The position numbers were made by a program, and so were the translations under genes. The notes beneath the pieces were generated by a model. That model searched no databases. It had not been told where the DNA came from and saw nothing but the letters and a program-made list of their open reading frames with translations. Shown here one piece after another: positions 20,161 through 49,712 of a stretch of DNA of 64,000 nt (within the stretch, counting starts at the first letter, position 1; each line of letters begins with the position of its first letter). Source of the stretch: Chloroflexota bacterium (GTDB lineage: Bacteria > Chloroflexota > Anaerolineae > Anaerolineales > UBA11579); contig JABFGG010000003.1 of assembly GCA_013112575.1 (NCBI GenBank), positions 152,898-216,897 on the forward strand, in the 5' to 3' direction.

Positions 20161-22317
20161 TTAGGGGCAGATCACTTGTTGTTGCTGATTGAGATAACAG
20201 GGGATGGGTGTGTCCTCCGGTGCGGGCCGGTCGGATGTGGGCTTTGGTGTGGGGGTGGGTGGCTGCGGGACAGTAATCAGGCGCATCTCACTGAATGGAA
20301 TGCTGGGCGTGACGTCATCGCTATCCAGCCAGCAGTTGGTGTTGGCTACGTTGGGGTGAGAAGCTACCAGCCAATCTTGATTGCCATTGCCGGTGAAACC
20401 AGCACCGATCAATTGCGTTGATACACCCGAAGCTAAATTGCTGACGAGGCCATATTGCGGCCCAGGGCCGTTGTAACAGGGTGTAGTTGTAATGATGGTT
20501 ACTGTGCTGGGGCCGCCGGGTGTGGGGGTGCCGATGACAATGTCTGGGTCTTCCAGGGTCAGGAGGCTGGCACCAGTTTCGTAAGCGCCCGCATCACAAC
20601 TTGCTCCAACCGGGCGGCCAAAAGTACGTTGATCTTCCCCTAAACAAGAGCCGACCACGATGTCTACGGCTTCACTATCTGGGTCCAGGGCCAGGGTCCA
20701 GGTTTCGCCGCCATTGTCAGCCAGTGGGCCAATGCGCAATTCGGCGGGGGTAAAAGTCTCCGGGAAACCGCAGGTAGCATCGGAATCAACATTAGTGCCC
20801 TGTAGCGGGAAAGGAATGGCGCTGGGGCCGCTGCTGATGTTGCAGTCATCTAGACCATTTTCGGCGGCTAAGATACTGCGCACGAGGCTGACAGTATTTC
20901 CCCCCCTGAAGGCGGAAAGGCCAGATTCCCCGTTACGGGCGAGGGTGACAAAGCGCATAGCCAGGTCGCCATCGACTGCAATAATGCCGCTGTTGGTGTT
21001 TCCGGTGCTGGTTGAATTCAGCATGGTCATGTCGCCACGGTTTTCGATGCCGTCAAGTTCATTGTCGGCGATAAGGCTGCGATTGATGTAGGCTCGGGCG
21101 AGCGTGCCATTGTAGATGCCAGCATTACCGCCGTCATTCGCTCTGATGGTAGAGTCGAGAACCACTAAGTCGCCCGTTTCTGTCTGGTTCAGGATGCCGC
21201 CATTATGGTTATTTTCGATCAAGGAAGAATAAACGCGCAGCCAGCCCCGGCTTCCAATGCCGCCACCCAGGCTGGTGCCAGCATAGAAAGAGGCATTGTC
21301 GCGAACGGTGACCTCTTCAAGTGTGGCTTCGCTGGTTTCATCAATGAGGATGCCTGTGCGCGGGTTACTGTAAACGTTTCCTCCATTCATGGTGAGAATG
21401 GCATCGTCACTTAGTACGATACCCTCTTCATTCTCGAAGACATCTGTGTTTGTCAGGGTCGCTAAGCCCCCATCGATCCACAGGCCGGGATGATTCATGC
21501 TAAGGATATTGCCGTGCCCGCTGATATCTACACCCGTCAGGTTAGCGGTACCACTACTATAGACACCATAGGTGCCATTGTCCCTGACGATAGTGCCATT
21601 CATGGCCAGCAGGCCAGCGCTGCTGACCCCTGACATATAGTTGTTGGCAACTTCGCCACCCTGAATGTCCAGGTTGCCGCCAGAAACCCCGGCCCCGAAA
21701 GAGCCCTCAAGCTGAGTGGTGCCTGTCACATTTACGTTGATGAGCGTAACTAGGCCGGAACTGGAACTGCGGATGCCGTTGCCAATGCTGTCGACTACAT
21801 TGACATCTTCAACTATCACATCGGCGTTACCGCGAATTTCAATACCACTGCCGGGAGAATTGCCTGAGGCATTCTGGACTGTGAGATCTTCGATACGCAC
21901 GCGGGCGTCACCTGAAGCATAAAAAACTCCATACAATCCGCCGCCATCAATGAAGGTGCTGTCGCGGCCAGCTCCGGTAATGATCAAATTGTAGTCAATG
22001 CCCAGGGCGCTGGAACCTTCACGGAAACCTGTTTCAGGATAGGTTCCGGCAGCAATGAAGATTTGATCGTCATCGTCTGAGCGGGAAACGGCCTCTTGTA
22101 CAGTCAGGCAGGGGTCGTCAATGAAGGCACAGGAATTGCTGTCATCACCATCTGTGGCAACATACCACAAAGATGACTCTCGTTCTTCAGAAATGCCCGG
22201 TGTAGGGGTGCTGGTAGGCAAATTGCCCAGGATGTCCCGGGCCAGGTCCAATGGGCCGCAGGCCAGGGCTGTGAGCGTCATGGCGAAGACGCTGATGATA
22301 AGCTTTTTCTTGTACAT
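20161..22317 (-). CDS. right-handed parallel beta-helix lipoprotein with choice-of-anchor-Q-like region and C-terminal SH3-like/PT-linker/Cys-loop module (H1)
   Basis: Lipobox LTALAC. Many beta-helix repeats (N.A..GGGI-like turns). LADNGGETWTLAL...GEDQRTFGRPVGASCDAGAYE. The C-terminal approx 105 aa is shared with H2 and the sigma fusion. Confidence 0.8.
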   Translation of the reverse strand: MYKKKLIISVFAMTLTALACGPLDLARDILGNLPTSTPTPGISEERESSLWYVATDGDDSNSCAFIDDPCLTVQEAVSRSDDDDQIFIAAGTYPETGFREGSSALGIDYNLIITGAGRDSTFIDGGGLYGVFYASGDARVRIEDLTVQNASGNSPGSGIEIRGNADVIVEDVNVVDSIGNGIRSSSSGLVTLINVNVTGTTQLEGSFGAGVSGGNLDIQGGEVANNYMSGVSSAGLLAMNGTIVRDNGTYGVYSSGTANLTGVDISGHGNILSMNHPGLWIDGGLATLTNTDVFENEEGIVLSDDAILTMNGGNVYSNPRTGILIDETSEATLEEVTVRDNASFYAGTSLGGGIGSRGWLRVYSSLIENNHNGGILNQTETGDLVVLDSTIRANDGGNAGIYNGTLARAYINRSLIADNELDGIENRGDMTMLNSTSTGNTNSGIIAVDGDLAMRFVTLARNGESGLSAFRGGNTVSLVRSILAAENGLDDCNISSGPSAIPFPLQGTNVDSDATCGFPETFTPAELRIGPLADNGGETWTLALDPDSEAVDIVVGSCLGEDQRTFGRPVGASCDAGAYETGASLLTLEDPDIVIGTPTPGGPSTVTIITTTPCYNGPGPQYGLVSNLASGVSTQLIGAGFTGNGNQDWLVASHPNVANTNCWLDSDDVTPSIPFSEMRLITVPQPPTPTPKPTSDRPAPEDTPIPCYLNQQQQVICP

Positions 22318-22351
22318 GGTTTAGATCCTCTCTCTCGTGAGTTCTACTTAA

Positions 22352-22380
22352 TAAACGTATTCAGGTCAAATTTGTTATCA
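22352..22380 (-). promoter_or_regulatory. candidate ECF-type promoter TGATAAC-N16-CGTTTA for H1
   Basis: The reverse complement of 22374-22380 is TGATAAC and of 22352-22357 is CGTTTA. Lies about 35 nt upstream of the ATG. Confidence 0.45.
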
Positions 22381-22422: not shown

Positions 22423-23196
22423 TTACTTCTTCGTGAAAATGTGCCCGCAAAGGGGAGTTGTTGCAGAACCGAAGGGTGGTGAACCCAACCAGATATCGCT
22501 CAAAATCAGACGGCCTTGATCATCGATCAGGTAGGTTCCGGTGCCGTCGATGTTCTCGGGGAGATAATTGACGCCATCAGCTTGAATTTTGATGGTCTCT
22601 GTATCAAAACTGTATTCTCCGACATAATCGATGTAGGCTTCAAAGGGCCGCCAGGTGACACTGAGGCTGCCGTCGGCAGAGAAGATGAGTTCGCCAATGG
22701 GTTCCTCTACTGAGGTTTCATCGTAAGTGTCACATGTTTGTTGGGCCTTCTCTGTCCAGATGCCGACGAGCGGGTTGCCATCTAAGGAATAAACGGTGAC
22801 CTTTTCTTCGAAGACCTGCTGGCCTGAGGAAACAGAGGCTTGTACAGTGAAAGTCGCTCCGTTACCGACTTCGTCATCGGCAGTTAACAAACCGGTTTGT
22901 GTATCGATCTCGACTCCCTTTGGGGCATCTGCCAGAGACCAGTCTGCACTGGCTTCCACTGTTTCCCAGAATACACAACATTCAAGGGTAGCAAGCCTTA
23001 ATTCCAGTTGTCCGCCTGCTTCGATTTGCAGATTGCCACTTACGGGTGGACCTTCGATCTTTTGGGGGACTATTGAGATGGCCTCTGCATTCTCAAGGGT
23101 CGGTTGGGCGACCTGGCCGACTGAAGAACATGCCAGGGTGGCTACCAACAGTGCCAAAATGCTGATCCAATACCTTTTTATATAGATTGCTTTCAT
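22423..23196 (-). CDS. lipoprotein of unknown function, downstream of H2
   Basis: ATG at 23194-23196 after GAGGAGA. Signal/lipobox LLVATLACSS. The track start at 23265 adds an unlikely 23-aa extension. Confidence 0.6.
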   Translation of the reverse strand: MKAIYIKRYWISILALLVATLACSSVGQVAQPTLENAEAISIVPQKIEGPPVSGNLQIEAGGQLELRLATLECCVFWETVEASADWSLADAPKGVEIDTQTGLLTADDEVGNGATFTVQASVSSGQQVFEEKVTVYSLDGNPLVGIWTEKAQQTCDTYDETSVEEPIGELIFSADGSLSVTWRPFEAYIDYVGEYSFDTETIKIQADGVNYLPENIDGTGTYLIDDQGRLILSDIWLGSPPFGSATTPLCGHIFTKK

Positions 23197-23268
23197 GTTT
23201 AAACTCTCCTCTGCTCTAAAGGTAAACCCTTTTAGGAAGAATTTGTAACAGTTCTTGAGGGCCATAGC

Positions 23269-25479
23269 CTAGCAGGTGGGCACGCCGTTGCCGTTCAAGG
23301 GACACGGAGTAGGATCTTTGGCCGGTTCACGCGTCTCGTCCGGGGTAGGGAGGGGCGTGGGTGTGGGGCGGGCGGGAACGGTTATCAAGCGCATTTCGCC
23401 CAGTGGGATGCCAGTCGTGACGTTGTCGCCGGGCAGCCAGCAATTGACATTTTCGGCTGTAGGATGCGTGCCTACTACCCAGGCCTGATTGCCATTGCCG
23501 GTAAAACCTGCGCCGACCAATTCCATGGTGGTGCCTGCCGAGAAGTTATTGACAAAGCCCCAATCCGGGCCGGGGCCTGTGTAGCAGGGGGTGTCGGGGA
23601 TAAGCACGGTAATAGTAGTGGCGCCTCCCGGCTCTTCTTCGGCTGCTGTTGCAGGCGCCGCAGCAACAGCACCAGTCTCGTAAGCACCTACATCGCAACC
23701 TGCACCTACAGGTCGACCAAAATCACGCTGGTCTATAGGAGGACAGCTTCCGGTAGCAGCGTCGATGGCAGGGCTACTGGCTAACAAAGCATGAGTCATG
23801 GTCAGGCCGCCATTATCTGCCAATCCACCAAGGAGCAGGGCTGTGGGGGAATAGGTGGCTTCTACGCCGCAAGAGCCATCTGTATCGATGTTGACGCCGG
23901 AAGTAGTGCTGCCCTCCAGGCTAAGGAGGTTGATGCAGTCACTGGGAGCGTTGCGGGCGATGATGGTGTTGTCGACGTTGATGCCGGAAGTCAAAATGCC
24001 GAACTGGGTGTTCTCGGCGATGGTGGAGTAGGAGATCGTGGAATTGCCCCATAAGTATGCTCCCAACCCATTATTGTTGCTGATGGTGGTGTTGAGAATC
24101 CGAATCTCTCCGTCGCCTTCTACGCCTGCCCTGAAGCCCTCACCCGCAGCACCCTCAAGGGAGTTGTGCGCGATGAGGCTGTTATCGATGTGGAGAATGC
24201 CACCCAAGTTATAGATGGCGGGATAAGGCTCTTCGGGGTATACACTAGAGTAAAGGACATTGGTATAGCTCATATCCACAGTGCCGGTGGAATCATTTCT
24301 GATGGCTCCATCGCGATTGCGGAGCAATTCACTGTGGGTTATGGTCAGTGCCCCAAAATTGCTGATCGTCCAATTGCGCGGGCCGAGGGTGCCATTGTTC
24401 TCGAAGGTAGTCCCTTCAACGGTTGCCGACCCAGTGTCGGAGATGGAAAGGGCGGTTCCTGGATGATCGCGAACCGTGCTATCGATTAAGGTCAGGCTGC
24501 CGCCGGGGGAGACGTGGATGCCCCTATCGTTCTCCCGGATATTGCTGTTGTCGATCTGCATGGTGCTGTGGGTATCGATGCCGTAAAGATTGGCAGGCGC
24601 AAGATGGTTGTGGTGAACTCCAACAAAACTCAATTGCGCCGTCCCCATGCGGTGTTCGAGCCCCGCGAACTGATTCTGGGTCAGGGTCGTGCCTGTCAGG
24701 CTGATATTGCCCCAATTGAATATGCCAGTCTTATCGTTAGCAGCGATCTCCCCTCCATCGACGGTCATATCACCGAAATTGAGGATGCCGTGCTCGTGCC
24801 AGGTGCTCTCTGCCGGGCCGAAGCCCAGACCGTGTGCCCCGCTGATGTTGACGTTGATCAGCTCAACAGGCCCACTGCCGCGGTTCTCCACACCATTGCC
24901 AACGCAATCCACGAGGTTGACATCGACAACGCGTATTTCTGCGGTGGAGGTTTCCCCAATGTCGATGCAGTCACGTGCATTTTGTAGGGTCAGGTCCCGA
25001 ATAATGATGCGGCCTGCGCCGTCTATGGGGAAACCATTACTAACTTCGCCATCCACTCTGCGGTTAATGATGGTTGAGTCTGTGCCGGCGCCCATGATGG
25101 TGATGTTTCCCTCAAGTGAGCGGTAATAACTGTCATCCATCGTGTAGGTGCCTGGGCCAATGCGGACCACATGGTGGTTACGGCCTTCGGGGTCTGTCAC
25201 CGACAGAGCCAGACTAAGCGCGCGACCAACCGTTGCGCAAGGTGCAGGTTGGCAGTTGTTGAGATCTGATCCATCCGTGGCAACATGCCATTCCTGGATG
25301 AACAAATCGATGCCACCAACCGGTTCAGGTGGCGGACCACTTACCAGGGTCGGCGGCACGTCGATGATTGGCAATGGCGTTGGGCCTCCCAAAGTGCGAG
25401 GCATGTTGCAGGCTGTGAGTACCAATAATGTCAGAATGGCAATAGCAAAACTAAATTTCTTCTTGTAGGCAGGGTTCAT
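23269..25479 (-). CDS. right-handed parallel beta-helix lipoprotein, paralog of H1 (H2)
   Basis: Lipobox LVLTAC, beta-helix repeats, LADNGGLTMTHAL...IDQRDFGRPVGAGCDVGAYE, and the same C-terminal module as H1. Confidence 0.8.
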   Translation of the reverse strand: MNPAYKKKFSFAIAILTLLVLTACNMPRTLGGPTPLPIIDVPPTLVSGPPPEPVGGIDLFIQEWHVATDGSDLNNCQPAPCATVGRALSLALSVTDPEGRNHHVVRIGPGTYTMDDSYYRSLEGNITIMGAGTDSTIINRRVDGEVSNGFPIDGAGRIIIRDLTLQNARDCIDIGETSTAEIRVVDVNLVDCVGNGVENRGSGPVELINVNISGAHGLGFGPAESTWHEHGILNFGDMTVDGGEIAANDKTGIFNWGNISLTGTTLTQNQFAGLEHRMGTAQLSFVGVHHNHLAPANLYGIDTHSTMQIDNSNIRENDRGIHVSPGGSLTLIDSTVRDHPGTALSISDTGSATVEGTTFENNGTLGPRNWTISNFGALTITHSELLRNRDGAIRNDSTGTVDMSYTNVLYSSVYPEEPYPAIYNLGGILHIDNSLIAHNSLEGAAGEGFRAGVEGDGEIRILNTTISNNNGLGAYLWGNSTISYSTIAENTQFGILTSGINVDNTIIARNAPSDCINLLSLEGSTTSGVNIDTDGSCGVEATYSPTALLLGGLADNGGLTMTHALLASSPAIDAATGSCPPIDQRDFGRPVGAGCDVGAYETGAVAAAPATAAEEEPGGATTITVLIPDTPCYTGPGPDWGFVNNFSAGTTMELVGAGFTGNGNQAWVVGTHPTAENVNCWLPGDNVTTGIPLGEMRLITVPARPTPTPLPTPDETREPAKDPTPCPLNGNGVPTC

Positions 25480-25514
25480 GGGTTAGATCCTCTCTCTCGT
25501 TAGGTTCTGAGTAA

Positions 25515-25543
25515 TAAACGTAATAAGGGCCAAATAGTTATCA
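25515..25543 (-). promoter_or_regulatory. candidate ECF-type promoter TGATAAC-N16-CGTTTA for H2
   Basis: Same motif and spacing as upstream of H1. The about 70-nt leaders of H1 and H2 are nearly identical. Confidence 0.45.
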
Positions 25544-25819
25544 TTTTTCTTGTTTCCTGACATCTTTGGGTGATTTGACAGTGATCTTGATCTCAATAGA
25601 TGTGTCCTCATTCTCGTTCTTCTCCACTACATGATGGCGAAAAGTGTAGTTTCCAGTTTGATTTGTTTGTTGTTCTAAAAAGTCCAAAAGTTCGTAAATA
25701 GAGGCAAAATTGTTTCGTTCCTCTTTCCCTGGCTCTTCCAGCGAGGCTCGCCAAACTAACTGACCTTGTTCTTCAAGCTGCCATAAGCGCAGCATATAAG
25801 CCAGATAATCAGGCGGCAC
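25541..25819 (-). CDS. small hypothetical protein (LRLWQ...WRASLE...FASIYELLDFLEQQ motif)
   Basis: 92-aa ORF with a GTG start and no clear RBS. The N-terminal motif recalls a small conserved-hypothetical family, from memory only. Confidence 0.35.
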   Translation of the reverse strand: MPPDYLAYMLRLWQLEEQGQLVWRASLEEPGKEERNNFASIYELLDFLEQQTNQTGNYTFRHHVVEKNENEDTSIEIKITVKSPKDVRKQEK

Positions 25820-26003: not shown

Positions 26004-28043
26004 ATGGAAGAAAAAGCGATAAGCATCCGTTTACTGGGATCATTCCAGGCTGAGTTGGGCGAAGGGCAGAAAGCCACATTTCGTTCCGATAGTGAACGCG
26101 CCCTATTGGCATTTCTCCTGATGGAAAAAGATCGCCCGCATCGCAGAGAGAGCCTGGGGGCTTTACTGTGGCCAGAAGTTAGCGAAAAACAAGCGCGCAA
26201 CAATTTGAGGGTGGCTTTACACCGCATGCGCCAGACGATGGAGGCCAATGGGCGGGAAGTCGTAATTGCCAACAACCGCGAACTGCAATTTAATGAAGAT
26301 GCGGATGTATGGTTGGATGTGTGGGCTTTTGAAGATGCCTTGCAGTCCGTGGAGTCTCATGACCATAAGGGCCTGGAAAGTTGTGTCAAGTGCCAGGAAA
26401 AACTCAGTGAAGCTGTTGAGCTTTACCGTGGCCCCTTTTTGCAGGGCTTCATGCTGGAAGATAGCCAGCCTTTCCTTGAATGGGTAGTTTTAAAGCAAGA
26501 ATGGTTACACCGCCAGGCATTGGAAACACTGGCAATACTTGCTGATGTACACGTGGCTTTGGAAGATTATGAGAAGGCAGAAGCCTTTGCGCGACGCCAA
26601 CTGACTCTGGAGCCCTGGAGAGAAGAGGCACATCGCCAACTGATGCATGCTCTGGCTCTGCGAGGTGAACGCAGTGCGGCGTTGGCACAATATGAAAGCT
26701 GCCGGGCTGTTCTGGAAGAAGAGTTGGGCGCGCCGCCTTCCGATACGACTGAGAAGCTTGTAGAAAGAATCCGTAGTGGAGAAGGTTATAGTGAAGAGCA
26801 AAGGGGTAGTACGAGAGTTAAACGAAAAGTTGAATTGACTGCAAGCACACGAGGATTCGACCGCCGTTGGCTTGTTGGCATAGCAGGAGTTGTTTTGTTG
26901 GTTGTGTTGGGTATTGTTGGCTTCGGAAGCATTTGGAGTAATTCCAAAAATGAAAAAAGGGGAGGGATTGCCTGGGAGTTTGAAGATGCGGGCGATACAG
27001 AAGGTTGGGTGCCTTTATATGACCTTGGCCCTTTGACCGTAAGAAGAGGACAACTGCATATCAATTCAACGGGTGATGACCCTTATTTATATATCCCGGA
27101 AGGTGTGGCATTCGATGCTCGAGAGCATCCGTTAATAGAGATGCGGATGAAAGTGTCTGATGGATATGTGGCCCAGGTGTTTTTCCACAATGAAGGTGAA
27201 ATTGATTTTGTGGAGGACAAATCTCAAGTTTTCCCCATTGTCCCAGACGGGGAGTTTCACACTTATATGCTTGATATGTCTGCACAGGATGGGTGGCAGG
27301 GTATGATCAGTGGGCTGCGCCTTGACCCCACGGATACAGTGGCTTCCGTGGAAATTGACTATATCCGCATTGTTCCCAAGGTAGAGGCGGAGAGCGCAGG
27401 TTTAATTGGGGGAAACGTGTATGACAATTTCAACGAACTGGGCTTCGATGGAGCCTATGATTCGGGCAAGTGGATCGAGCCGGATTGGCCGGGGTTAAAA
27501 TGTGAGATCTTCCAGCAAGATGGTGTGTTGCGGGCCTCTAATCATGAATCATTGATGGGATCGGGATGCACTTTTCGAGCCAAGCGACCGCTGGCAGTTG
27601 CTGGCGGTGAATTGGGCGATTATGCGGCAGATCTTCAACTGCTTGATACTCACAATGGCGGCTTTGCAGGGACCGTGTTGCGCATAACGACTGAGTTTGA
27701 AGGCGGGGGCTGGGCGGCGAGTTGTGGAATATTGGCGGATTTTGATGCCCTGAACGTGCAGTTTGACGTCAGCGATGCGCGGCTTAGCGAAGACGATTTT
27801 TTGTATCAGGCGAACCTTCCGGCTGACTACAATACCTGGTACGAAGTTGTGCTGCAAATTGATGAAGGGGCAAAGCGAATTACGTGCATGGTGGATGGAC
27901 AGGTTGTTGGGGAATACCTGCCCGAGAATGCTACCGAACTGGCTTCCGCTCTGATGAATCGCGAACTCGGTGTGTGGCACGAAACAGATGCTATGGCCAC
28001 CACGCTAATCGATGATGTCGAAATCCAAGTGAATTCAAGATAG
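26004..28043 (+). CDS. membrane-anchored SARP/BTAD-family transcriptional regulator with extracytoplasmic LamG/jelly-roll-like sensor region
   Basis: OmpR-type winged helix (IRLLGSFQAELGEG...LRVALHRMRQ), BTAD (LYRGPFL...EEAHRQLMHALALRGERSAALAQYESCRAVLEEELG), one TM helix (WLVGIAGVVLLVVLGIVGF), then about 370 aa outside. Confidence 0.75.
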   Translation: MEEKAISIRLLGSFQAELGEGQKATFRSDSERALLAFLLMEKDRPHRRESLGALLWPEVSEKQARNNLRVALHRMRQTMEANGREVVIANNRELQFNEDADVWLDVWAFEDALQSVESHDHKGLESCVKCQEKLSEAVELYRGPFLQGFMLEDSQPFLEWVVLKQEWLHRQALETLAILADVHVALEDYEKAEAFARRQLTLEPWREEAHRQLMHALALRGERSAALAQYESCRAVLEEELGAPPSDTTEKLVERIRSGEGYSEEQRGSTRVKRKVELTASTRGFDRRWLVGIAGVVLLVVLGIVGFGSIWSNSKNEKRGGIAWEFEDAGDTEGWVPLYDLGPLTVRRGQLHINSTGDDPYLYIPEGVAFDAREHPLIEMRMKVSDGYVAQVFFHNEGEIDFVEDKSQVFPIVPDGEFHTYMLDMSAQDGWQGMISGLRLDPTDTVASVEIDYIRIVPKVEAESAGLIGGNVYDNFNELGFDGAYDSGKWIEPDWPGLKCEIFQQDGVLRASNHESLMGSGCTFRAKRPLAVAGGELGDYAADLQLLDTHNGGFAGTVLRITTEFEGGGWAASCGILADFDALNVQFDVSDARLSEDDFLYQANLPADYNTWYEVVLQIDEGAKRITCMVDGQVVGEYLPENATELASALMNRELGVWHETDAMATTLIDDVEIQVNSR

Positions 28044-28214: not shown

Positions 28215-29675
28215 TCAGGGGCAGTATTGCTGCTGGTCTATGGCACAATCCGTAGGTTGTGGATCGTCACCAGGTTGGCGGGGGTCGTCTGGGGTGACGG
28301 TGGGTGTAGTTGTGGGTTTGGGAGGAATGAAGATGTAAGGAAGAACAGGGTTATCTTCGTCCAGGCTGATATCCCCCGCAATCAGCCAGCAATTCACATT
28401 CTCGATGTCCGGATGCGGTCCAACGTAATAAGGAACGTTAAAGCCCTCCCCAACAATCTTGATCTGAGTGCCAGCGGTGAGAGTGTTGACAATACCCCAC
28501 TGTAAGCCGGGACCTGAATAGCAGGTTGTATCTTCTTCTGCGGTTCCCAAAACTTCATCATCATCATCTGCTGGTTCATCCCCACCATCTGGTGGGAGGG
28601 GCGGAGAAACGTTCTCTGAATTCTCTGGGGTGCCTTCGAGCGCGGCGGTTGACAACGGTGTTTCTGTAATGAAAAGGGCTTCGACAGCTTCTTCTTCCGT
28701 TTCCTCTGGGGCTTCTACAGGCGCCACCGGAGGGGGAGGTGGTGGAGGGTCAAATATGGCCGCGAAAAGATTACTTTGTAAGGCTGCAATAACGCCTAGC
28801 ACGATAGTGGATGCAACGATGGCTACGCCACCGCCAGCAAGGACCTTGGGGCGGGCATTGCGCCAGCGTTTTCTACGGCGAAGGCGCTGCGTAGTGCCTG
28901 TGCGTTTGAGGATGCGCGGGCCCAAGCCAGCGGGCGGGATGAGCGGGATGAAGGCACTGAAGATCGTGGATACCGAAAGAAGATTGCGCTGGCGTTCCTG
29001 GCAGTATTCACAATCTTTGACATGCTGGCGGACGAGACGATCCTGAGCGCTGTCGGCTTCATTGTCATGGATGACGCCGATAAGTTCGCCCATGGTGGAA
29101 CATTCGGTGGAGGTTTCTTCCAGCAGCAAGCGAATGCCATAGGCTTCCTGGAATTTGTTGCGAGCACGATGGAGCAGAACCTTGACGTAGTCAATGGTAG
29201 TCTCCATGATCTCGGCGATCTCGTTGTAAGCATATTTGTGAAACTCGCGCAACAATAAAACCTCACGATACTGGGGGGCCAGTTTCTCTAGGGTTTTGCG
29301 CACACGTGCGGCAATATCGCCTTGAGAGGCAGCGCGTTCCGGGTCATTGTTGGGATCGCGGATGTTTTCAATCTGGTCGGCGGAATCGATCATATCGCGG
29401 TTCTGTCGGGTCTCATCAATAAAGCGATTGTGAACGATGCGAAAGACCCAGGCGCGGAAATTGTAGGGTGGGCCAAGACGCTTAAGGTTAGCGTGGGCGC
29501 GTATGAAAGCATCTTGTGTAAGGTCTTCGGCCCAGTCCTGATCATAAGCGAGGGTAACCGCATAGTTATAAACCGCCTGGAAATGCTCTTCAAAGAGATC
29601 TGCAAAAGCTTGCGGATCGCCCTGGGCGGCTTGCTGCACGAGGCGAGCATTAAGGTCAGTATGTGAGTCGTTCAC
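28215..29675 (-). CDS. ECF sigma factor fused to zinc anti-sigma (HxxxCxxC), TM helix and extracytoplasmic SH3-like module
   Basis: Region 2 (DLTQDAFIRAH...WVFRIVHNRFID), region 4 (QYREVLLLREFHKYAYNEIAEIM), HVKDCEYC, TM VLAGGGVAIVASTIVLGVIAAL, PPPPPPP linker. The C-terminal module is homologous to the H1/H2 termini. GTG start. Confidence 0.8.
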   Translation of the reverse strand: MNDSHTDLNARLVQQAAQGDPQAFADLFEEHFQAVYNYAVTLAYDQDWAEDLTQDAFIRAHANLKRLGPPYNFRAWVFRIVHNRFIDETRQNRDMIDSADQIENIRDPNNDPERAASQGDIAARVRKTLEKLAPQYREVLLLREFHKYAYNEIAEIMETTIDYVKVLLHRARNKFQEAYGIRLLLEETSTECSTMGELIGVIHDNEADSAQDRLVRQHVKDCEYCQERQRNLLSVSTIFSAFIPLIPPAGLGPRILKRTGTTQRLRRRKRWRNARPKVLAGGGVAIVASTIVLGVIAALQSNLFAAIFDPPPPPPPVAPVEAPEETEEEAVEALFITETPLSTAALEGTPENSENVSPPLPPDGGDEPADDDDEVLGTAEEDTTCYSGPGLQWGIVNTLTAGTQIKIVGEGFNVPYYVGPHPDIENVNCWLIAGDISLDEDNPVLPYIFIPPKPTTTPTVTPDDPRQPGDDPQPTDCAIDQQQYCP

Positions 29676-29685
29676 GTTTATCTAA

Positions 29686-29715
29686 ATAACGGGGTTTAGT
29701 GGGGTTTTGTTATCA
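29686..29715 (-). promoter_or_regulatory. candidate autoregulatory ECF-type promoter TGATAAC-N17-CGTTAT
   Basis: The reverse complement of 29709-29715 is TGATAAC and of 29686-29691 is CGTTAT. It lies only about 10 nt before the GTG start, implying a very short leader. Confidence 0.4.
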
Positions 29716-29876
29716 ATTTATTAGAAATTGGTTTTATGTAGTTGGTGCTTGCTAAAAGGCACTAGTTTTGACTATTCAGACTGTACCGCATTTGAGAAAA
29801 GAACGCAATGAGAGGAGGGTTTTATAGGCATCTTTCGCAGATTAGCAAAAGTACAGAAAGGTATAATCTGGCGGCA

Positions 29877-31370
29877 ATGGACAAGCAGCGAAGAAAATGG
29901 CTATGGCCAACAACACTGGGTGCTATCGCTTTACTGGGATTCGGATTGGTGTGGGCCAGTACGATCTGGGGGGCGGGTTTGATATCCGATTCTTTCCAGT
30001 ATGTATCCACGGCGCGTAACCTGGCAGGCGGGTTGGGTTTCCAGTTTGAGGTTGGAAAGAGTTTATTGCCCCTGGTGCATTACCCGCCTTTGTTTCCTTC
30101 TGTACTGGCAGGTTTTGAGATTGCGGGAATCGATGCTTTATTGGGAGCAAGGTTGATCAATGCCCTGCTTTTTGGGGCCAACGCTGTTTTGGTGGGTGTG
30201 AGCATAGAGAAAATCACAGCGTCCAAAGTCTGGGGGAGTATAGGCGCTTTGTTGACAGCAATTGCGGCAGTATTGCTGGGAGTACATAGTTGGGCGTTGA
30301 GTGAGCCTTTGTACATTTTCCTTGGTTTAGTAGGGTGGTTGATTTTGTCACAGTATCTGGAAAATAATCAATTGCGATTGCTCGTAGCAGCCAGTGGATT
30401 ATTTGGATTGGCATTTTTGGCTCGTTATGCTGGGGTAGCGATCGTAGTAGCAGGCGCGTTGGCAGTATTGCTTTTCTCTACTCAGAACTGGCGGAAGCGC
30501 GGGATGGATGCCGCGCTGCTAGGCATCATCAGCGTGAGTGTGTCAGGTCTGTGGGCCGTGCGCATCACATTGCTGGCAGGTAGTTTTGGGGCGCGTGAAT
30601 TGCAATACATCCCGCTAACTGCCGGGAATATCGAATCCCTCTTGAACAATATCCTGACCTGGGTTGTGCCTTTCCCGCTGGTGAACGGGCGCGAGGCATG
30701 GATTTTATTTGGTTTATTTATCGGTCTAGTTGTTTTTGGCTTGTATGTGCGAGTGAGCGATTTGAAGGTAAAAGAGATAGTGTGGTCTGAAAAGACGTTG
30801 TTTCGATTGCATAGCCTGTATTTCTGGGTGTATCCGGTATCGGTTGTGGCGGCCAAGATGTTTTTGGATCGCGGCATAGGTTTGAATGACCGCATGCTCT
30901 CCCCGATGTTAGTGTCCCTGATGATCGTGGGCGTGAGTATTGTGGCACAAGTGTGGAAAATGGATCAACGGCGATGGGTACGTGTAGTATTGGTCAGCGG
31001 AGCGGTGCTGTTCACAGCCTTCTATGGGGTGGAAACAGGACTGGCCATGCGTAGTTTTCGTGGAGAGGGGTTGGGCCTGGCGCGGGCGGATTGGCACAGC
31101 GCAGAATCCATTCAAGCTTTTGCAGATTTTGAGGATGAGGAATTCTATTCCAATTCACCTTCATCGCTTTATTTGTGGAGTTACAAGCCTGCCAACAACT
31201 TAAATTCATTTGCGCGAATGGCGGCGAGTGCTGATCCGGACAGAGCTTATATCGTGGTGTTTGCTCACGTCCCCACCAATAAGAACATTGAAGAAATGGC
31301 TGAAGGAGTAGAATTGGTTGTGGGGGATGAGGTGGCTGAGGTGTATTTATTTGTGCCCGAGGGGGAGTAG
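29877..31370 (+). CDS. polytopic membrane protein, GT-C (ArnT/PMT-like) glycosyltransferase candidate
   Basis: About 12 TM helices. DS motif in the first extracytoplasmic loop (GLISDSFQYVSTARNL). Soluble C-terminal domain. The ATG at 29877 is preferred over the track start at 29808. Confidence 0.5.
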   Translation: MDKQRRKWLWPTTLGAIALLGFGLVWASTIWGAGLISDSFQYVSTARNLAGGLGFQFEVGKSLLPLVHYPPLFPSVLAGFEIAGIDALLGARLINALLFGANAVLVGVSIEKITASKVWGSIGALLTAIAAVLLGVHSWALSEPLYIFLGLVGWLILSQYLENNQLRLLVAASGLFGLAFLARYAGVAIVVAGALAVLLFSTQNWRKRGMDAALLGIISVSVSGLWAVRITLLAGSFGARELQYIPLTAGNIESLLNNILTWVVPFPLVNGREAWILFGLFIGLVVFGLYVRVSDLKVKEIVWSEKTLFRLHSLYFWVYPVSVVAAKMFLDRGIGLNDRMLSPMLVSLMIVGVSIVAQVWKMDQRRWVRVVLVSGAVLFTAFYGVETGLAMRSFRGEGLGLARADWHSAESIQAFADFEDEEFYSNSPSSLYLWSYKPANNLNSFARMAASADPDRAYIVVFAHVPTNKNIEEMAEGVELVVGDEVAEVYLFVPEGE

Positions 31371-32311: not shown

Positions 32312-33829
32312 ATGCAGAACCGTCAACGGCTAACAAGTTATTTAAAGTGGTTTGCACCGCCCCAATTTGCGGATGCAGAGAAAATGCGGCGCGTGAGATT
32401 GCTAAATGTAATCTTGTGGATGGCGCTTGTCCTTACCATTTTTTCGGGGATATTTGATCTCGCTTTTGGTACAAATCCCTGGCGGACACTCTGGTTTTCA
32501 CTCGTGCTTCTCTTGATCGAAGGGATTGCTTTGCTGTTGATGTGGCAGGGTTACCTTGACTGGGCGGCATTATTTTTTGTGGGTATGGTCTGGGTGGTTT
32601 ATAGTGGGCTGATCCTGATCACCGGTGGAATTTATAGTCCCGACGTTTATGGACAAATGCTTGTAGTGTTGGGGGCGGGATTGTTGCTGGGCTGGCAGGC
32701 TGCCGGCGTGTTCGCCGTAGCGAGCATTTTTTGGGTCGTGGCCGTATCTTATGCTGGGCTGTGGGGCTTCCTGGACTTCAGCAGCGTGCTTGATAACACT
32801 TTCGGAAGCCGACTGGTGTCATACATTACCCAATTGGTCGCAGTCAGTGTGCTATTGGGGCTGGCGGACCAGAGTATCAAGAATGCCCTAAAGCAGGCCA
32901 GCGAGAATGCCCAGAAATCGAATAGTATTCAAGCCCAACTTGAGGCCACATTGGATGCCCTGCCGGATATGATGTTCGAGGTTGGGCCACGGGGGCGTAT
33001 CCTGGATTATCGCGCCCCGAAAAACAGTGGTATCAATTTAGCTCCCGAAAGTTTTTTGTATAAACGCTTCAGTGAGGTGCTGCCCGAAGATGCATCCGCA
33101 GTGATCGCGGATGCATTAAATGAGGCTTCAGCAAGTGGTCGTTCCAGAGGGGCAACCTACTCAATGGATGTGAATGGAGAAACGCGCTGGTTTGAATTGT
33201 CTGTATCTGTTAAGGGAACTGCAGATGGCAATTTGATCGCGCTGGTACGTGAAGTGACCCACCGCATTGAAAGTGAACGGCGTTTGAAAGGAGATTTAAA
33301 AGAGACAGCAGCCTTGGCGCGAACGGATGATTTAACGGGCTTATTGAACAGGCGCGCAATCCTGGAAATGGCCGAAGCCGAGTTTGACAGGGCCCAACGC
33401 CAGAAAAAATCGGTGAGTTTATTATTGATCGATATGTTCAGATTAAAAGAGATCAATGACACACACGGCCACCTGACCGGCGATGCTGCTTTGAAGTTGT
33501 TGGCGCAAGTCTTGCGAGAGAACCGCAGACGCTACGATTGGGTTGGGCGTTGGGGCGGGGATGAATTTGTGGTGGTTTTGCCAGGGGTGGGTGATGAGAA
33601 GGCCTTACAAATGGCCGAGCGTTTGCTTGAGCAAGTGCAAGATACTTATGTATCTTTGCCAGACGGAGGTCAGGAACGACTGCGGGTGAGTGTCGGGGTG
33701 AGCTGTTTTGAAGAAGATGAGCATGAAAATGTCACCCTGGAAACATTGCTGACACAGGCAGATAAGGCCATGTACCAGGCCAAAGAGACCGGGCCGAATA
33801 CGGCGGGAGTGTATCAGGTAAAGAAGTAA
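32312..33829 (+). CDS. membrane sensor diguanylate cyclase (TM region - PAS - GGDEF)
   Basis: Six hydrophobic helices, a PAS-like segment, DDLTGLLNRRA and RWGGDEFVVVLPG. Confidence 0.85.
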   Translation: MQNRQRLTSYLKWFAPPQFADAEKMRRVRLLNVILWMALVLTIFSGIFDLAFGTNPWRTLWFSLVLLLIEGIALLLMWQGYLDWAALFFVGMVWVVYSGLILITGGIYSPDVYGQMLVVLGAGLLLGWQAAGVFAVASIFWVVAVSYAGLWGFLDFSSVLDNTFGSRLVSYITQLVAVSVLLGLADQSIKNALKQASENAQKSNSIQAQLEATLDALPDMMFEVGPRGRILDYRAPKNSGINLAPESFLYKRFSEVLPEDASAVIADALNEASASGRSRGATYSMDVNGETRWFELSVSVKGTADGNLIALVREVTHRIESERRLKGDLKETAALARTDDLTGLLNRRAILEMAEAEFDRAQRQKKSVSLLLIDMFRLKEINDTHGHLTGDAALKLLAQVLRENRRRYDWVGRWGGDEFVVVLPGVGDEKALQMAERLLEQVQDTYVSLPDGGQERLRVSVGVSCFEEDEHENVTLETLLTQADKAMYQAKETGPNTAGVYQVKK

Positions 33830-33874
33830 AGATTCTTGGGGGTGTGTATTTAAAAGCTATGTTACTTTAAGTAC

Positions 33875-35191
33875 ATGAAAGCTGTCTCTATATTGCCCTT
33901 AGCCTTTAGTCTGTTGCTATGGGGGTGCAGCGCGCCTCCGGCAACTCAATTACCAAGTGTTACAGAGATGGAAGCGGTATCCAATGAACTAACTGCAACA
34001 GCTACAGAACTTGCCTCACTAGTAGAATCGGTACGCACTGCTACTGAAACGCTGGAAGTGCAGGTCCCAACTCCCACAACGACAGTGGTTGAGGATGATG
34101 AAGTAGTCCAAGCAGGGGTGAATGGGATCATCCTATTCATTGGTGACGGTATGGGAGTCGGGCAGCGGACAGCAGCACGTTGGCTGGCTGCGGGGCAGGA
34201 TGGCCTGCTAGCGATGGATCAGATGGAGGTGGCGGGTTTGGCGCAAACGGCTGCCTACCAACGGCCGGTCACAGATTCGGCGGCGGGGGCAACTGCCATG
34301 TCGAGCGGGGTGCAGACGCGTTATGGGGTCGTGGGCCTGGATAAAGATTACGAGCCGGTTATCACTATTTTGGAGCAAGCTGAAGCACTGGGCTGGTCGA
34401 CTGGGTTAGTCACTACAGTGCAAATGGCGCACGCGACCCCGGCGTCGTTTGCAGCACACGTTGCAGATCGCGCTAATATGCTGGAGATCGCTCGCCAATA
34501 TCTTGTTGCAGATGTGGATGTTCTCATGGGCGGCGGGGAAGATGAATTCCTGCCGGGTGGGGAAAGAGGCTGTTATCCGGAACCGGGTGAACGCGGCGAT
34601 GGGAGTAACCTTGTTGCCCAGGCCCAGGAGTTGGGTTATCGTTATATATGTACAGCAGAGGAGTTATCTTCTCTTGATGTTGCCAATACACCCAAACTAC
34701 TAGGGTTGTTCGGCGATGAAGAGATGGTACGCCCCTTCTCACCGAGTTTGACTGAGATGACGATCAAGGCGGTTGAGATACTTTCCCAAAACCCTAATGG
34801 GTTTTTCTTGATGGTAGAAGGTGGGCAAATTGATTGGGCGGGGCATGCCAACGATGCTGCTTGGGCCATGGAGACCACCCTGGGATTTGATTCAGCGGTG
34901 GCATATGGGCAGGCTTATGCGGCAATTGATGGGAATGTGTTGGTGATCGTAGCGGCAGACCATGAAACGGGTGGAATGAGCGTGGGCCTAACCCCAGATG
35001 GAACTTTCAGGCAGGAGGGTCCGTTTACAGGGGCAGATGGGCAAGAGTTTTACGTGGATTGGCAAACCGGATCTCATACCGCGGTGGACATTCCGATTAA
35101 TGCACAGGGGCCTTATGCAAATATGTTGGAAGGGACATATCATTTGGCGCATATTTATGAGGTTATGTATGCGGCCTTGATGGGGAAATGA
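33875..35191 (+). CDS. secreted alkaline phosphatase (PhoA family)
   Basis: Lipoprotein-type signal LLLWGC, FIGDGMG, active-site DSAAGATAMSSG, and the HETGG metal site. Confidence 0.85.
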   Translation: MKAVSILPLAFSLLLWGCSAPPATQLPSVTEMEAVSNELTATATELASLVESVRTATETLEVQVPTPTTTVVEDDEVVQAGVNGIILFIGDGMGVGQRTAARWLAAGQDGLLAMDQMEVAGLAQTAAYQRPVTDSAAGATAMSSGVQTRYGVVGLDKDYEPVITILEQAEALGWSTGLVTTVQMAHATPASFAAHVADRANMLEIARQYLVADVDVLMGGGEDEFLPGGERGCYPEPGERGDGSNLVAQAQELGYRYICTAEELSSLDVANTPKLLGLFGDEEMVRPFSPSLTEMTIKAVEILSQNPNGFFLMVEGGQIDWAGHANDAAWAMETTLGFDSAVAYGQAYAAIDGNVLVIVAADHETGGMSVGLTPDGTFRQEGPFTGADGQEFYVDWQTGSHTAVDIPINAQGPYANMLEGTYHLAHIYEVMYAALMGK

Positions 35192-35324
35192 TGCATAAAA
35201 ATAGCTTATCGATAATAAGATTTTGTAGGTTTCAATAACAGTTTGCAAAACTGTAAAGCGTTTCAGGTAAAAAAGAGTACCTTTGGTATATGACTTGGCA
35301 TAATATGAAAGCTAATATGAAAGT

Positions 35325-36419
35325 ATGGCAATAAAACCTGGAGTACAACGCAGCCATGAACGACAAGAAGATATGCTCCAAACCCTGAATACCTTTGTGG
35401 CAAAAGTGGTCGGCAAATTGCGCGCGCCATCTAATTCAACTCGATCAAATTCCGATTTGCAGAAGGCTTTAGAGGTGAGCGAAGAACGTTTTCGCTTGCT
35501 GGCTGACCACATTGATGAAGTGTTCTGGTTGATCTCGGCGGATGGCAGCGAGGTGCAGTTCGTGAGCAGCGCTTATAAAAAACTGACCGGGCGGTCAAGT
35601 GAGATGTTGTTTGCTGATGCCAATGATTGGGAACACAGCATGGACCCCCAACATCGCCCGCGTTTCCAGGAGATGATGGCTGCTGTGCAAGGTGGGAAAG
35701 AGCCTGTTGAAAATGAACAGGAATTTGGGATCATGCGTGAGGATGGCAGTGTGCGCTGGGCGCGTATCCAGATCCAACCCATGCGCGATGAAAAAGGAGA
35801 ACTAATGATGTTCCTGGGGGTGGCTGTTGATGTAACGGAAAACAAAAGACTAGAACAAGAACTAAAGAAATCGTTAGCGCGCATTGAAGCCGAGGCGATG
35901 ATCGACGAGTTAACCGGATTGCTAAATCGCAGAGCTGTGATCCAGAATGCCACTGCAGAGCTCAGTCGCGCCATGCGAGAAAAACGCCCGGTAAGTTTGA
36001 TGGTAATCGACATTGACAATTTGAAAGCTGTAAATGATGAATATGGCCATCTTGTAGGAGATAAGATCTTAAAAATGGCTTCGGCGATCATCGAACACAG
36101 CACAAGACCTTATGATTGGGTGGGGCGTTGGGGCGGTGACGAATTCATGGTCATTTTGCCGGGGGCCGACCTGCGGGTTGCGAAGAATGTAGCTGCACGC
36201 ATGCAGCGTATGACGCGCGATTCTGTGCTTGAACTGGACGACCAGAATGAATTAGAAATCCGCTTTAGTCTTGGACTTACAGTTTTCTTCGGGACAACGT
36301 TTACAGCCGAACAATCTGAAGAAGAGATACTGGAAAGATTATTTGGGGAAGCAGACCAGGCTTTGTATGAAGCGAAACAGGCGGGGCGTGACCAGGTGAG
36401 GATTTACGGAGAAGATTAG
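35325..36419 (+). CDS. cytoplasmic PAS-GGDEF diguanylate cyclase
   Basis: PAS (EERFRLLADHIDEVFWL), DELTGLLNRRA, RWGGDEFMVILPG. The GGDEF half is closely related to that of the 32312 gene. Confidence 0.85.
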   Translation: MAIKPGVQRSHERQEDMLQTLNTFVAKVVGKLRAPSNSTRSNSDLQKALEVSEERFRLLADHIDEVFWLISADGSEVQFVSSAYKKLTGRSSEMLFADANDWEHSMDPQHRPRFQEMMAAVQGGKEPVENEQEFGIMREDGSVRWARIQIQPMRDEKGELMMFLGVAVDVTENKRLEQELKKSLARIEAEAMIDELTGLLNRRAVIQNATAELSRAMREKRPVSLMVIDIDNLKAVNDEYGHLVGDKILKMASAIIEHSTRPYDWVGRWGGDEFMVILPGADLRVAKNVAARMQRMTRDSVLELDDQNELEIRFSLGLTVFFGTTFTAEQSEEEILERLFGEADQALYEAKQAGRDQVRIYGED

Positions 36420-43959: not shown

Positions 43960-44075
43960 GAGGCTCCTTCTCTCAGGAATGGGAATTCAGCAAAGTAACT
44001 GCTGTAACTAATTTCACTAATCTTAACACAGTGTGAATTTTCGGGGGTGGGAGGGAAACGATATGTTACATTGGC

Positions 44076-44104
44076 TTGACTGAAATCGTATACGATTATA
44101 CACT
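44076..44104 (+). promoter_or_regulatory. promoter with embedded GntR-type operator (palindrome ATCGTATACGAT, 44085-44096)
   Basis: TTGACT at 44076-44081, a 12-bp perfect palindrome containing the GT-N-AC core, then TATACA/TACACT. Lies in the divergent region between the ABC operon and the gntR-like gene. Confidence 0.45.
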
Positions 44105-44110
44105 TGGGTA

Positions 44111-44758
44111 GTGGCTGAGTTAGAACTATCACGGGCAGGGGGCAGTACGGCTGACGCTGTGGCCGATGCCATACGCGAGTCGATACTGAAAGGGGATTTT
44201 AAAAGGGGAGTGGCTTTAAAGCAGGATGAACTGGCTGCTAAAGCGGGTGTTAGCAAAATCCCTGTGCGAGAGGCGCTGGTGAAACTGGAGGCGGAGGGAT
44301 TGGTGCAATTTTCACCGAATCGCGGGGCGGTAGTGGTTGATCTGTCTGTTGATGAAGTGCAGGAAATCACGCTGATGCGTATTGCGTTGGAGACTGTGCT
44401 CTTGAGGGAGGCCATTCCGTATTTGAAGATGCCAGAATATTCCCTAGCGGCAGGCCTGCTGAATGGTATTGCTAATGAACCAGATGCCTTTGAATGGGTG
44501 AAGCTTGATTGGGCGTTTCATGAAGCGCTTTATAAGGCGGCAAATTTGCCTAAGATTCTGAAAATGGCCCGGCAGCTCTACAACAACATGGCGCGATATA
44601 TGGTTGAGTTCCGATTAATTGCGACAGGGTTAAATTCCCAGCGGCAACACCGAGCTATCTTGAGGGCGAGCCGGAGAAAGAATGTTGGCCCAGCGAGCAG
44701 TTTTTTGGAGAACCATATACTAGATACAGGCAAGGCGATCATCGGGGCGATGAAATAG
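44111..44758 (+). CDS. GntR-family regulator, FadR subfamily (FCD domain)
   Basis: LKQDELAAKAGVSKIPVREALVKLEAEGLV HTH with an all-helical C-terminal domain. GTG start. Confidence 0.85.
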   Translation: MAELELSRAGGSTADAVADAIRESILKGDFKRGVALKQDELAAKAGVSKIPVREALVKLEAEGLVQFSPNRGAVVVDLSVDEVQEITLMRIALETVLLREAIPYLKMPEYSLAAGLLNGIANEPDAFEWVKLDWAFHEALYKAANLPKILKMARQLYNNMARYMVEFRLIATGLNSQRQHRAILRASRRKNVGPASSFLENHILDTGKAIIGAMK

Positions 44759-44762
44759 GATT

Positions 44763-44815
44763 TTGTAAAGGTCTTGACAGATACTTGATTAAATAGAACG
44801 TTTGTGCATAATTAA
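44763..44815 (+). promoter_or_regulatory. 53-bp promoter element, copy 1 (TTGACA ... TTGATT-16 nt-TGCATAAT)
   Basis: 49/53 identical to 59400-59452. TTGATT at 44785-44790, CATAAT at 44807-44812, preceded by TG. Confidence 0.55.
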
Positions 44816-44887
44816 TGATGCTGGGGAAGTTGTAAATCGTATTGGTGGTGGGGGAAATAGAGGATGAATTCATAAAGAGAAAGACAA

Positions 44888-46531: not shown

Positions 46532-46638
46532 GGGCTAAATCCAGGATTTGGCTTCAGAGAACGTACCGCATTCTCTACTACGAGCAATGGAGCCTGGGAC
46601 GAAGAGGGCAAATATAAATATCGAGGTGAGAATTCATT

Positions 46639-48672: not shown

Positions 48673-48694
48673 ATTGGTAAGTTTTGGATAAAAC

Positions 48695-49672: not shown

Positions 49673-49712
49673 TGTTTAGCAAAGTCGGATTTTCGTCAAA
49701 GGGGTTCTTTAG

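Follow-up and report, generated by a model that had tools for sequence, protein, structure and literature searches.

A gene on the minus strand of contig JABFGG010000003.1, from a Chloroflexota bacterium of the order Anaerolineales, encodes a protein of 486 amino acids (aa) in which an extracytoplasmic function (ECF) sigma factor, a zinc anti-sigma domain (ZAS), a transmembrane (TM) helix, a stalk, and an SH3b-like ectodomain follow one another in a single polypeptide. The source is a metagenome-assembled genome (MAG) of Chloroflexi/Chloroflexota, and the window analysed here is the 64,000-nucleotide stretch of the contig from position 152,898 to position 216,897, in which features are numbered from 1 (Table 1). 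We hold it to be moderately probable that this protein is a one-polypeptide sigma/anti-sigma unit released by regulated proteolysis, with an autoregulated regulon of lipoproteins that bear the same C-terminal module as the sensor.

Architecture and conservation of the fused protein

The open reading frame (ORF) starts with GTG, the first possible start past the upstream stop, and NCBI labels its product solely as "RNA polymerase sigma factor." Hidden Markov model (HMM) searches detect both Sigma-70 region 2 and region 4 in its N-terminal part, separated by a short linker (aa 94–111) that is disordered in the AlphaFold2 (AF2) model. The ECF model of NCBIfam (TIGR02937, sigma70-ECF) matches at 105 bits against a cutoff of 42.9 (2e-30), and neither region 1 nor region 3 has a Pfam match in the 486-aa protein. 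With regions 2 and 4 present, the superfamily model passed, and regions 1 and 3 absent, the protein belongs to group 4 (ECF). The NCBIfam models of SigM, SigW, and SigY match the sigma core at about 1e-27 to 1e-32, and all equivalog and subfamily models stay under their cutoffs, the top one being the SigM subfamily (111 bits vs 148). Among solved structures, a sequence search retrieves SigW (5wuq_A, 4e-15). Region 2 residues D51, Q54, F57, W76, and N83 do not vary among 18 aligned homologues of the fusion family. The N-terminus is predicted to be a functional-looking cytoplasmic ECF sigma factor, closest to SigW, SigM, and SigY.

The middle segment is a predicted class I zinc anti-sigma domain of the RsiW/ChrR type. 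Its motif reads C192-x25-H218-x3-C222-x2-C225; the first cysteine stands 26 residues before the histidine, within the roughly 23–26 residues by which the fourth ligand (C or H) precedes it in classical zinc anti-sigma domains. H218, C222, and C225 are invariant among the 18 aligned family members, and C192 is kept in at least 90% of them. The Pfam model zf-HC2 is matched by all 13 family members tested (E up to 0.1; best 3.5e-14), and a family profile of aa 181–262 matches RsiW (5wuq_C, 6e-7), ChrR (3e-4), DdvA (6e-4), and RslA (0.04). AF2 gives this domain four helices (193–203, 209–221, 223–240, and 251–258), the number expected of class I anti-sigma domains. In the full-length model, the sigma part has a TMt of 0.81–0.83 to SigW in the RsiW complex and of 0.82 to CnrH/CnrY, with values of 0.35–0.45 to ECF sigma factors bound to RNA polymerase. 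In the model, regions 2 and 4 thus stand in the closed, anti-sigma-bound (inhibited) arrangement, which weakly suggests such a state of the protein.

A TM helix is found in all family members. The basic cluster RLRRRKRWRNARPK precedes it and DPPPPPPP with an acidic stretch follows; hence, the topology is predicted to be N-in/C-out, with the sigma part in the cytoplasm and the C-terminus outside. Beyond the stalk lies an ectodomain, read as disulfide-containing, with cysteines at positions 385, 429, 477, and 485. The AF2 model of aa 375–486, made with an alignment of six sequences, has a pLDDT of 81, rising to about 90 or more in residues 1–80, and forms an SH3-like barrel. Its top match among PDB structures in Foldseek is an SH3 domain of Clostridium perfringens (2krs, TMt 0.75), and further matches include SH3 domains of NlpC/P60 proteins and the cell-wall-binding SH3-like domains of an endolysin and a muramidase; the E-values of these matches are marginal (~5e-3). 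Pfam SH3_3 and SH3_4 have no match in the window protein at E up to 0.1, and a profile of the module retrieves proteins made of SH3_3 repeats. There is no Pfam match to a carbohydrate-binding domain in the 486-aa protein. A preliminary description of the DNA, made from the letters and their translation, had proposed these elements in this order: sigma regions 2 and 4, the HxxxCxxC zinc motif (HVKDCEYC), a single TM helix, a PPPPPPP/acidic linker, and a folded, SH3-like C-terminal domain. The architecture of the ORF bears this out element by element, the zinc motif being completed by C192 and the last domain being supported by the structure prediction.

The joining of sigma and anti-sigma in one polypeptide, also proposed there, is confirmed as genuine rather than an artefact of assembly. 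An identical protein (NOH11331.1) and a near-identical form of 488 aa (KAA3643403.1/MBL1194037.1) occur in three NCBI assemblies in all, and Logan assemblies and contigs also carry the protein uninterrupted. The closest divergent homologue, P0002, is 77% identical and collinear across its full length. Fifteen more proteins with 28–49% identity (353–604 aa, most of them 466–604) have the sigma factor, the ZAS, the TM helix, a proline/threonine (PT)-rich stalk, and varied ectodomains. A profile search adds about 20 fused clusters, which brings the total to about 40 (460–613 aa) from independent metagenomes, all of them uninterrupted. The junction sequence ARxxFxExYGxRxLxEE..C is conserved among the fused clusters and therefore points to an old fusion.

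More distant relatives are organized differently. Among the matches listed in a scan of GTDB genomes, those with 24–30% identity come from Bacillota, Gemmatimonadota, Armatimonadota, Planctomycetota, and Poribacteria. Counted from the beginning of the match, their sigma ORF reaches a stop after about 170–197 aa; the anti-sigma homology runs past this stop, often in the same frame. These relatives are read, from their ORFs, as ordinary two-gene sigma/anti-sigma pairs, and the two-gene arrangement is likely to be the ancestral state. Matches reaching residues 260–325 were candidate fusions in other phyla and were rejected, as ORF tracing places the stop after about 170–197 aa. In most of the best-matching two-gene loci examined the continuation is in frame, and a single lost stop could join the genes. 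This would speak for an artefact in which faulty sequencing or assembly had merged two neighbouring genes, sigma and anti-sigma, into one ORF, and so would the two relatives that are broken, L001 (337 + 163 aa) and L004 (an in-frame stop). Both breaks were considered as natural splits and rejected. The one in L001 falls within the TM helix, away from the junction of sigma and anti-sigma, on an error-prone contig where other syntenic genes are also split; the one in L004, whose contig is likewise error-prone, lies inside the recognition helix of region 4, which is no natural gene boundary. With the protein uninterrupted in the NCBI and Logan assemblies and the junction conserved across about 40 divergent clusters, an artefact is improbable in the extreme and already effectively refuted.

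The split genes of L001, a contig with 5.5x coverage, include a beta-helix gene (516 + 218 aa), an alkaline phosphatase gene (325 + 116 aa), and the genes of GGDEF proteins, and the breaks on this contig are probably indel errors rather than pseudogenes. The L004 homologue (552–1820) comes from an Anaerolineaceae MAG; its stop in region 4 (…YDNAR*·HRARL…) is followed by further frame breaks downstream, for which a pseudogene and a co-assembly error are the two explanations.

Promoter motif and the module shared with lipoproteins

A search of the 64-kb window for GATAAC-N16-18-CGT returns exactly three matches against 0.89 expected, all on the minus strand (29689–29714, 25518–25542, and 22355–22379), and each stands about 10–37 nt ahead of one of the three genes whose products bear the module of the ectodomain. 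The module is present three times in the window, each time at the extreme C-terminus: in the sigma fusion, in a 736-aa protein (45% identity with the sigma ectodomain, E 1e-18), and in a 718-aa protein. ECF promoters of the SigW/SigX/SigM type are marked by AAC at −35 together with CGT at −10, and a promoter of this type fits the families that the sigma core matches best. When the regions upstream of the sigma genes of the window, L001, and L002 are aligned, TTGATAAC-N17-CGTTAT is kept, the spacer diverges, and the motif ends 10–13 nt before the start. We infer that the sigma factor would be autoregulated and would drive at least three beta-helix lipoprotein genes through TTGATAAC-N16/17-CGTTAT, a regulon call that rests on motif placement. 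A gap of 3 nt separates the 736-aa gene from that of the 280-aa lipoprotein, which follows it, and the two probably share one transcript.

The candidate −10 element of the sigma gene ends 7–13 nt before the start, with no Shine-Dalgarno sequence, both in the window (29673–29715) and in L084 (9964–10003). The beta-helix genes, unlike the sigma genes, are preceded by a clear ribosome-binding site, GAGAGAGAGGA. It may be that the sigma mRNA has no leader or almost none, in which case the window copy would begin with GTG.

Table 1. Position of the fused gene, its domains, the candidate promoters, and the putative target genes in the window
Feature	Position	Strand	Basis or remark
Whole gene: ECF sigma, zinc anti-sigma, TM, stalk, SH3b ectodomain	28215..29675	minus	486 aa; NOH11331.1
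Sigma-70 region 2, aa 27–93	29397..29597	minus	Pfam PF04542 Sigma70_r2, 5e-15
Sigma-70 region 4, aa 124–174	29154..29306	minus	Pfam PF08281 Sigma70_r4_2, 4e-12
Predicted class I anti-sigma domain, aa ~186–258	28902..29120	minus	Motif and profiles; HVKDCEYC (aa 218–225) at 29001–29024
Single TM helix, aa 278–309	28749..28844	minus	Hydropathy up to 2.34 over 19 aa; positive-inside rule
Disordered extracytoplasmic stalk, aa 310–379	28539..28748	minus	Sequence (PPPPPPP, then acidic, Pro-rich); pLDDT 33–36 in full-length model
SH3b-like ectodomain, PT-rich linker, and C-terminal Cys loop, aa 380–486	28218..28538	minus	AF2, Foldseek, profile search
Candidate autoregulatory promoter	29686..29715	minus	TGATAAC-N17-CGTTAT; ends 10 nt before GTG
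Candidate promoter of 736-aa gene	25514..25543	minus	TGATAAC-N16-CGTTTAT; ~34–35 nt upstream of the gene
Candidate promoter of 718-aa gene	22351..22380	minus	TGATAAC-N16-CGTTTAT; ~33–37 nt upstream of the gene
736-aa beta-helix lipoprotein, putative target	23269..25479	minus	C-terminal module 23272–23616
280-aa lipoprotein	22423..23265	minus	Lipobox LLVATLAC; no Pfam match
718-aa beta-helix lipoprotein, putative target	20161..22317	minus	C-terminal module 20164–20505; identical to KAA3643398.1

The motif recurs beyond the window. It stands ahead of the L001 orthologues, including a one-mismatch copy before the second beta-helix gene, ahead of the sigma genes of L002 and L084 (P0004 clade, 49% identity), and ahead of P0020 (L003), a third module-bearing beta-helix protein on a different contig. 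P0020 most likely belongs to the same organism, because the NOH and KAA/MBL accession series are common to it and the window proteins. In L085 (P0015 clade), CTGTCACA-N16-CGTTACA precedes the sigma gene and a lipoprotein gene two genes downstream, and the lipoprotein directly downstream of the sigma gene has the SH3-like module of that sigma factor (35% over 116 aa, 2e-19). The corresponding sequences are CTGTCACA-N16-CGTTAAA in L004 and GTAACA-N16-CGTTACA in L086 (P0012). Taking the four orthologous groups together, the −35 element differs by sigma subfamily (TGATAAC, TGTCACA, GTAACA) and the −10 element CGTTA is constant. Such a shift of the −35 element with the sigma subfamily would be expected if a sigma factor co-evolved with its own promoter. 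Upstream of the L087 and L088 genes, no clear motif is apparent, and P0017 seems to lack part of its N-terminus. In L088, the fused sigma gene P0017 is followed directly by a gene (7698–9158) for a reverse transcriptase of the group II intron type (RVT_1 + GIIM).

The module itself is widespread. An exhaustive search with its profile retrieves 1416 proteins at E up to 1e-3 and 173 at E up to 1e-10. Many of the top matches carry it at the C-terminus of proteins of about 550–740 aa, and the module-bearing proteins that were scanned are beta-helix or related repeat proteins, with lipoprotein-type N-termini in most. Other matches consist of tandem Pfam SH3_3 repeats, such as P0063, which has eight of them. 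Among the 150 module representatives listed, the only sigma fusions are the P0002 cluster, which should represent the window protein at the 50% clustering of the library, and P0160. Every copy of the module in the window ends in a PT-rich linker and a Cys-x6-9-Cys(-Pro) loop (28218–28290, 23272–23340, and 20164–20230), and this Cys-loop tail, for which AF2 confidence is about 50, is kept in many beta-helix lipoproteins from the profile search.

The recurrence of the module in sensor and putative targets allows a tentative and rather doubtful interpretation, a general "self-similar sensor" whose ectodomain would copy the anchoring or binding module of the lipoproteins that it controls, so that the cell would measure how far the envelope binding sites of the module are occupied or available, or would make homotypic contact with its own products, and would tune their synthesis by direct product feedback. 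In such a design, the module may be swapped jointly in sensor and regulon, being SH3b with a Cys loop here and SH3-like in proteins of the P0015 clade. For the P0004 clade, what is visible before the contig ends is limited to a common PT linker: the beta-helix lipoprotein downstream in L084 has the PT-rich linker of the sigma factor (Smith-Waterman score 138 vs 54 ± 9 for shuffles), and the contig stops before any domain that may follow. Neighbours of P0012 and P0013 either match at E 0.002 in PT-rich sequence alone or do not match, and no module is convincingly shared; therefore, the shared-module pattern is not universal.

Release, tethering, and other readings

According to the preliminary description, the sigma domain has to act at the membrane unless proteolysis frees it, which is a reasonable deduction. 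At rest, we propose, the anti-sigma domain would clamp regions 2 and 4 intramolecularly and the TM helix would tether the complex to the membrane. Precedents are the regulated intramembrane proteolysis (RIP) pathway of RsiW, the solved relative of the anti-sigma half, the release of IutY by Prc and RseP (PMC5411451), and the model put forward for ECF52 SCO4117 (PMC5826349, PMC8999054). Here, an envelope signal acting through the SH3b module, whose ligand would probably be peptidoglycan or another wall polymer, and through the stalk of about 70 aa would lead to the loss of the ectodomain; a site-2 protease would then cleave within the membrane, and the anti-sigma part would be degraded in the cytoplasm. 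The freed sigma factor would direct RNA polymerase to TTGATAAC-N16/17-CGTTAT promoters ahead of its own gene, giving positive feedback, and ahead of the at least three module-bearing beta-helix lipoprotein genes. In Bacillus subtilis RsgI, wall sensing and the gating of intramembrane proteolysis both fall to a disordered extracytoplasmic region (PMC9732909); given this precedent, the stalk is a plausible part of the sensor.

Several points weigh against proteolytic release and the regulon attached to it. Everything beyond the architecture, namely cleavage, zinc binding, the ligand, and the transcription start, is something that we infer. No genes for site-1 or site-2 proteases are found in the 64-kb window. 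After an intramembrane cut, the anti-sigma domain would still be covalently attached to the sigma factor, and release would therefore need a selective degradation that stops at region 4; the alternative would be a conformational opening after cleavage. The closed state of the AF2 model comes from a prediction with a pTM of 0.44 and an alignment of 18 sequences, which makes it weak evidence. L002, the 77% orthologue, has no adjacent beta-helix gene; therefore, the linkage of sigma and beta-helix genes is not universal. Finally, the window protein taken alone scores 14–17 bits against zf-HC2, below the cutoff of 22.2; the family evidence for the anti-sigma identity is much stronger.

The main competitor of proteolytic release is that the protein is never cleaved and that the sigma factor acts while tethered to the membrane, like ToxR or CadC, the zinc domain being a switch opened reversibly by oxidation or the loss of zinc, in the style of RsrA or ChrR, or by a conformational signal through the TM helix. 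The completeness of the zinc motif, its RsrA-like spacing from C to H, and its invariance in the family agree with such a switch. The roughly 35 residues that lead from anti-sigma helix 4 to the TM helix could give the sigma factor the reach that it would need, and both the missing protease genes nearby and the mechanistic awkwardness of a simple proteolytic release from a covalent linkage point the same way. In SigW/RsiW, however, the zinc site is structural and activation proceeds through regulated proteolysis. An elaborate and variable ectodomain also favours an extracytoplasmic signal over a cytoplasmic redox signal. Moreover, about half of the membrane-bound class I anti-sigma domains have the motif and are not redox sensors (PMC7406223), and the only fused sigma/anti-sigma protein tested experimentally, IutY, is released by proteases (PMC5411451). 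A permanently tethered sigma factor is thus, in our estimate, unlikely.

Far less probable still is that the sigma-like domain does not transcribe at all and serves as a PhyR-like decoy or a cytoplasmic anchor, the motif being read by another factor. The PhyR sigma-like models do give weak matches (E 0.005 and 0.07), and PhyR structures appear low in the ranking of the fold search, but the ECF models are far stronger, in TIGR02937 as in those of SigM, SigW, and SigY. Residues of regions 2 and 4 are invariant across the family, and an ECF-type −35/−10 pair is conserved before the gene in four orthologous groups, with a −35 element that tracks the sigma subfamily. Proteolytic release of the sigma factor is the reading that we prefer.

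Neighbouring genes and relation to known systems

Convergent with the sigma gene runs a plus-strand gene (26004–28043) for a 679-aa protein that resembles a second transcription factor tethered to the membrane: an N-terminal winged helix (Trans_reg_C) and a BTAD/SARP-type activator are followed by one TM helix and a large domain outside the membrane. Neither this gene nor a 92-aa ORF (25541–25819) is present in the syntenic L001, where the beta-helix genes come directly after the sigma gene. Divergent to the sigma gene is a gene for a multi-TM protein (29808–31370, plus strand; L001 6474–7817; L002 1–252), whose match to PMT_2 (GT-C) at E 0.001 is below the cutoff. It adjoins the sigma gene in all three orthologous loci, and its 5′ region is highly conserved. 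One may speculate that this protein glycosylates the Pro/Thr-rich linkers of the module-bearing proteins.

Further away, two PAS-GGDEF diguanylate cyclases flank an alkaline phosphatase (32312–36419), in synteny with L001, and an apparent operon on the minus strand (316–4010) encodes a MoxR-type AAA ATPase and DUF58 and DUF4129 proteins. The region from about 44000 to 64000 is phage-like, with a match to a terminase large subunit (44888–46531), an M23 peptidase (52764–54389), and several large ORFs without Pfam match. It has dips of GC to 0.41–0.44 (48–50 kb and 54–58 kb) and the strongest GC skew of the window.

The preliminary description knew of no report of this combination with an SH3-like ectodomain. 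As far as the fusion is concerned, novelty does not hold, sigma/anti-sigma fusions having been described in ECF48, ECF52, ECF53, and IutY; an SH3b ectodomain on such a fusion was not found in the literature searched. That literature contained neither a combination of ECF, anti-sigma, C-terminal extension, and SH3 nor a regulon of lipoproteins with the same module. The fusion of an ECF sigma factor to a zinc anti-sigma domain, a TM helix, a Pro-rich stalk, and a binding ectodomain is a described class; in ECF52, the member that has been studied is SCO4117 of Streptomyces coelicolor (PMC5826349). Fused proteins of this kind also make up ECF48 and ECF53, found like ECF52 in Actinobacteria (PMC8999054).

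The likeness to ECF52 extends over the ECF core, the zinc finger, the TM helix (one or more in ECF52), the Pro-rich stalk, and the presence of a binding ectodomain, and for both proteins positive autoregulation and proteolytic excision are proposed (PMC5826349, PMC8999054). The differences are several. ECF52 is reported to be exclusive to Actinobacteria (PMC5826349), whereas the window protein is from Chloroflexi; its ectodomain is a carbohydrate-binding module (smart00776), in place of the SH3b-like domain and Cys loop; its proposed promoter is CSGYN-17-SRHA instead of TTGATAAC-N16/17-CGTTAT; and the sigma core here is closest to SigW, SigM, and SigY. With an SH3b ectodomain and a Chloroflexi host, the window protein therefore lacks two defining features of ECF52, the comparison being with the published definition and not with the clade. 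ECF271 is a Chloroflexi ECF group with ZAS partners and ECF270 has some fused members (PMC8999054).

For both halves of the protein, the best solved relatives are SigW and RsiW of B. subtilis (5wuq/5wur). RsiW also has a zinc HxxxCxxC domain followed by a single TM helix, and the promoter type, AAC-N16-CGT, is shared. SigW and RsiW are separate proteins, in contrast to the covalent linkage here, and the ectodomain of RsiW is unrelated. The proteases of RsiW are PrsW, RasP, and ClpXP. Pseudomonas putida IutY (ECF243) combines, like the window protein, a cytoplasmic ECF sigma factor, a TM helix, and an extracytoplasmic regulatory domain in one polypeptide, and experiments have shown that Prc and RseP release its sigma domain (PMC5411451). 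In IutY, the anti-sigma part is of the FecR type, works with a TonB-dependent outer-membrane receptor, and has neither the zinc motif nor SH3b; conversely, FecR has no match in the window protein and there is no TonB-dependent receptor among the neighbours examined.

A parallel for a sensor that resembles its targets is found in Clostridium thermocellum, where the anti-sigma ectodomain is of the same kind of module (carbohydrate-binding module, PA14) as those on the enzymes that the sigma factor controls. These RsgI proteins are described as polysaccharide sensors that regulate cellulosome genes. SigI, unlike the fused ECF sigma factor here, is not an ECF and is separate from RsgI, and RsgI has an autoproteolytic juxtamembrane domain (PMC10556640, PMC10328401), to which nothing comparable was seen in the window protein.

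In conclusion, the window protein is a Chloroflexi, SigW/RsiW-like variant of known fusions with a different ectodomain. The fusion alone would not surprise a specialist; the module shared by sensor and putative regulon and the clean promoter are useful additions. Fused sigma/anti-sigma proteins behave like one-component systems among sigma factors and are poorly understood: the release mechanism has been demonstrated for IutY only, and ECF52 has a single studied member. They raise the question of how a covalently attached anti-sigma domain is removed or opened, and the present protein offers a test case with well-understood relatives in SigW/RsiW, a clearly defined promoter, and a small, recognisable putative regulon. 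It extends ZAS-fused ECF sigma factors to another phylum, ECF52 having been reported from Actinobacteria only, and a sensor that copies the module of the proteins it would regulate suggests a feedback akin to that of the biomass-sensing RsgI, built on an ECF scaffold.

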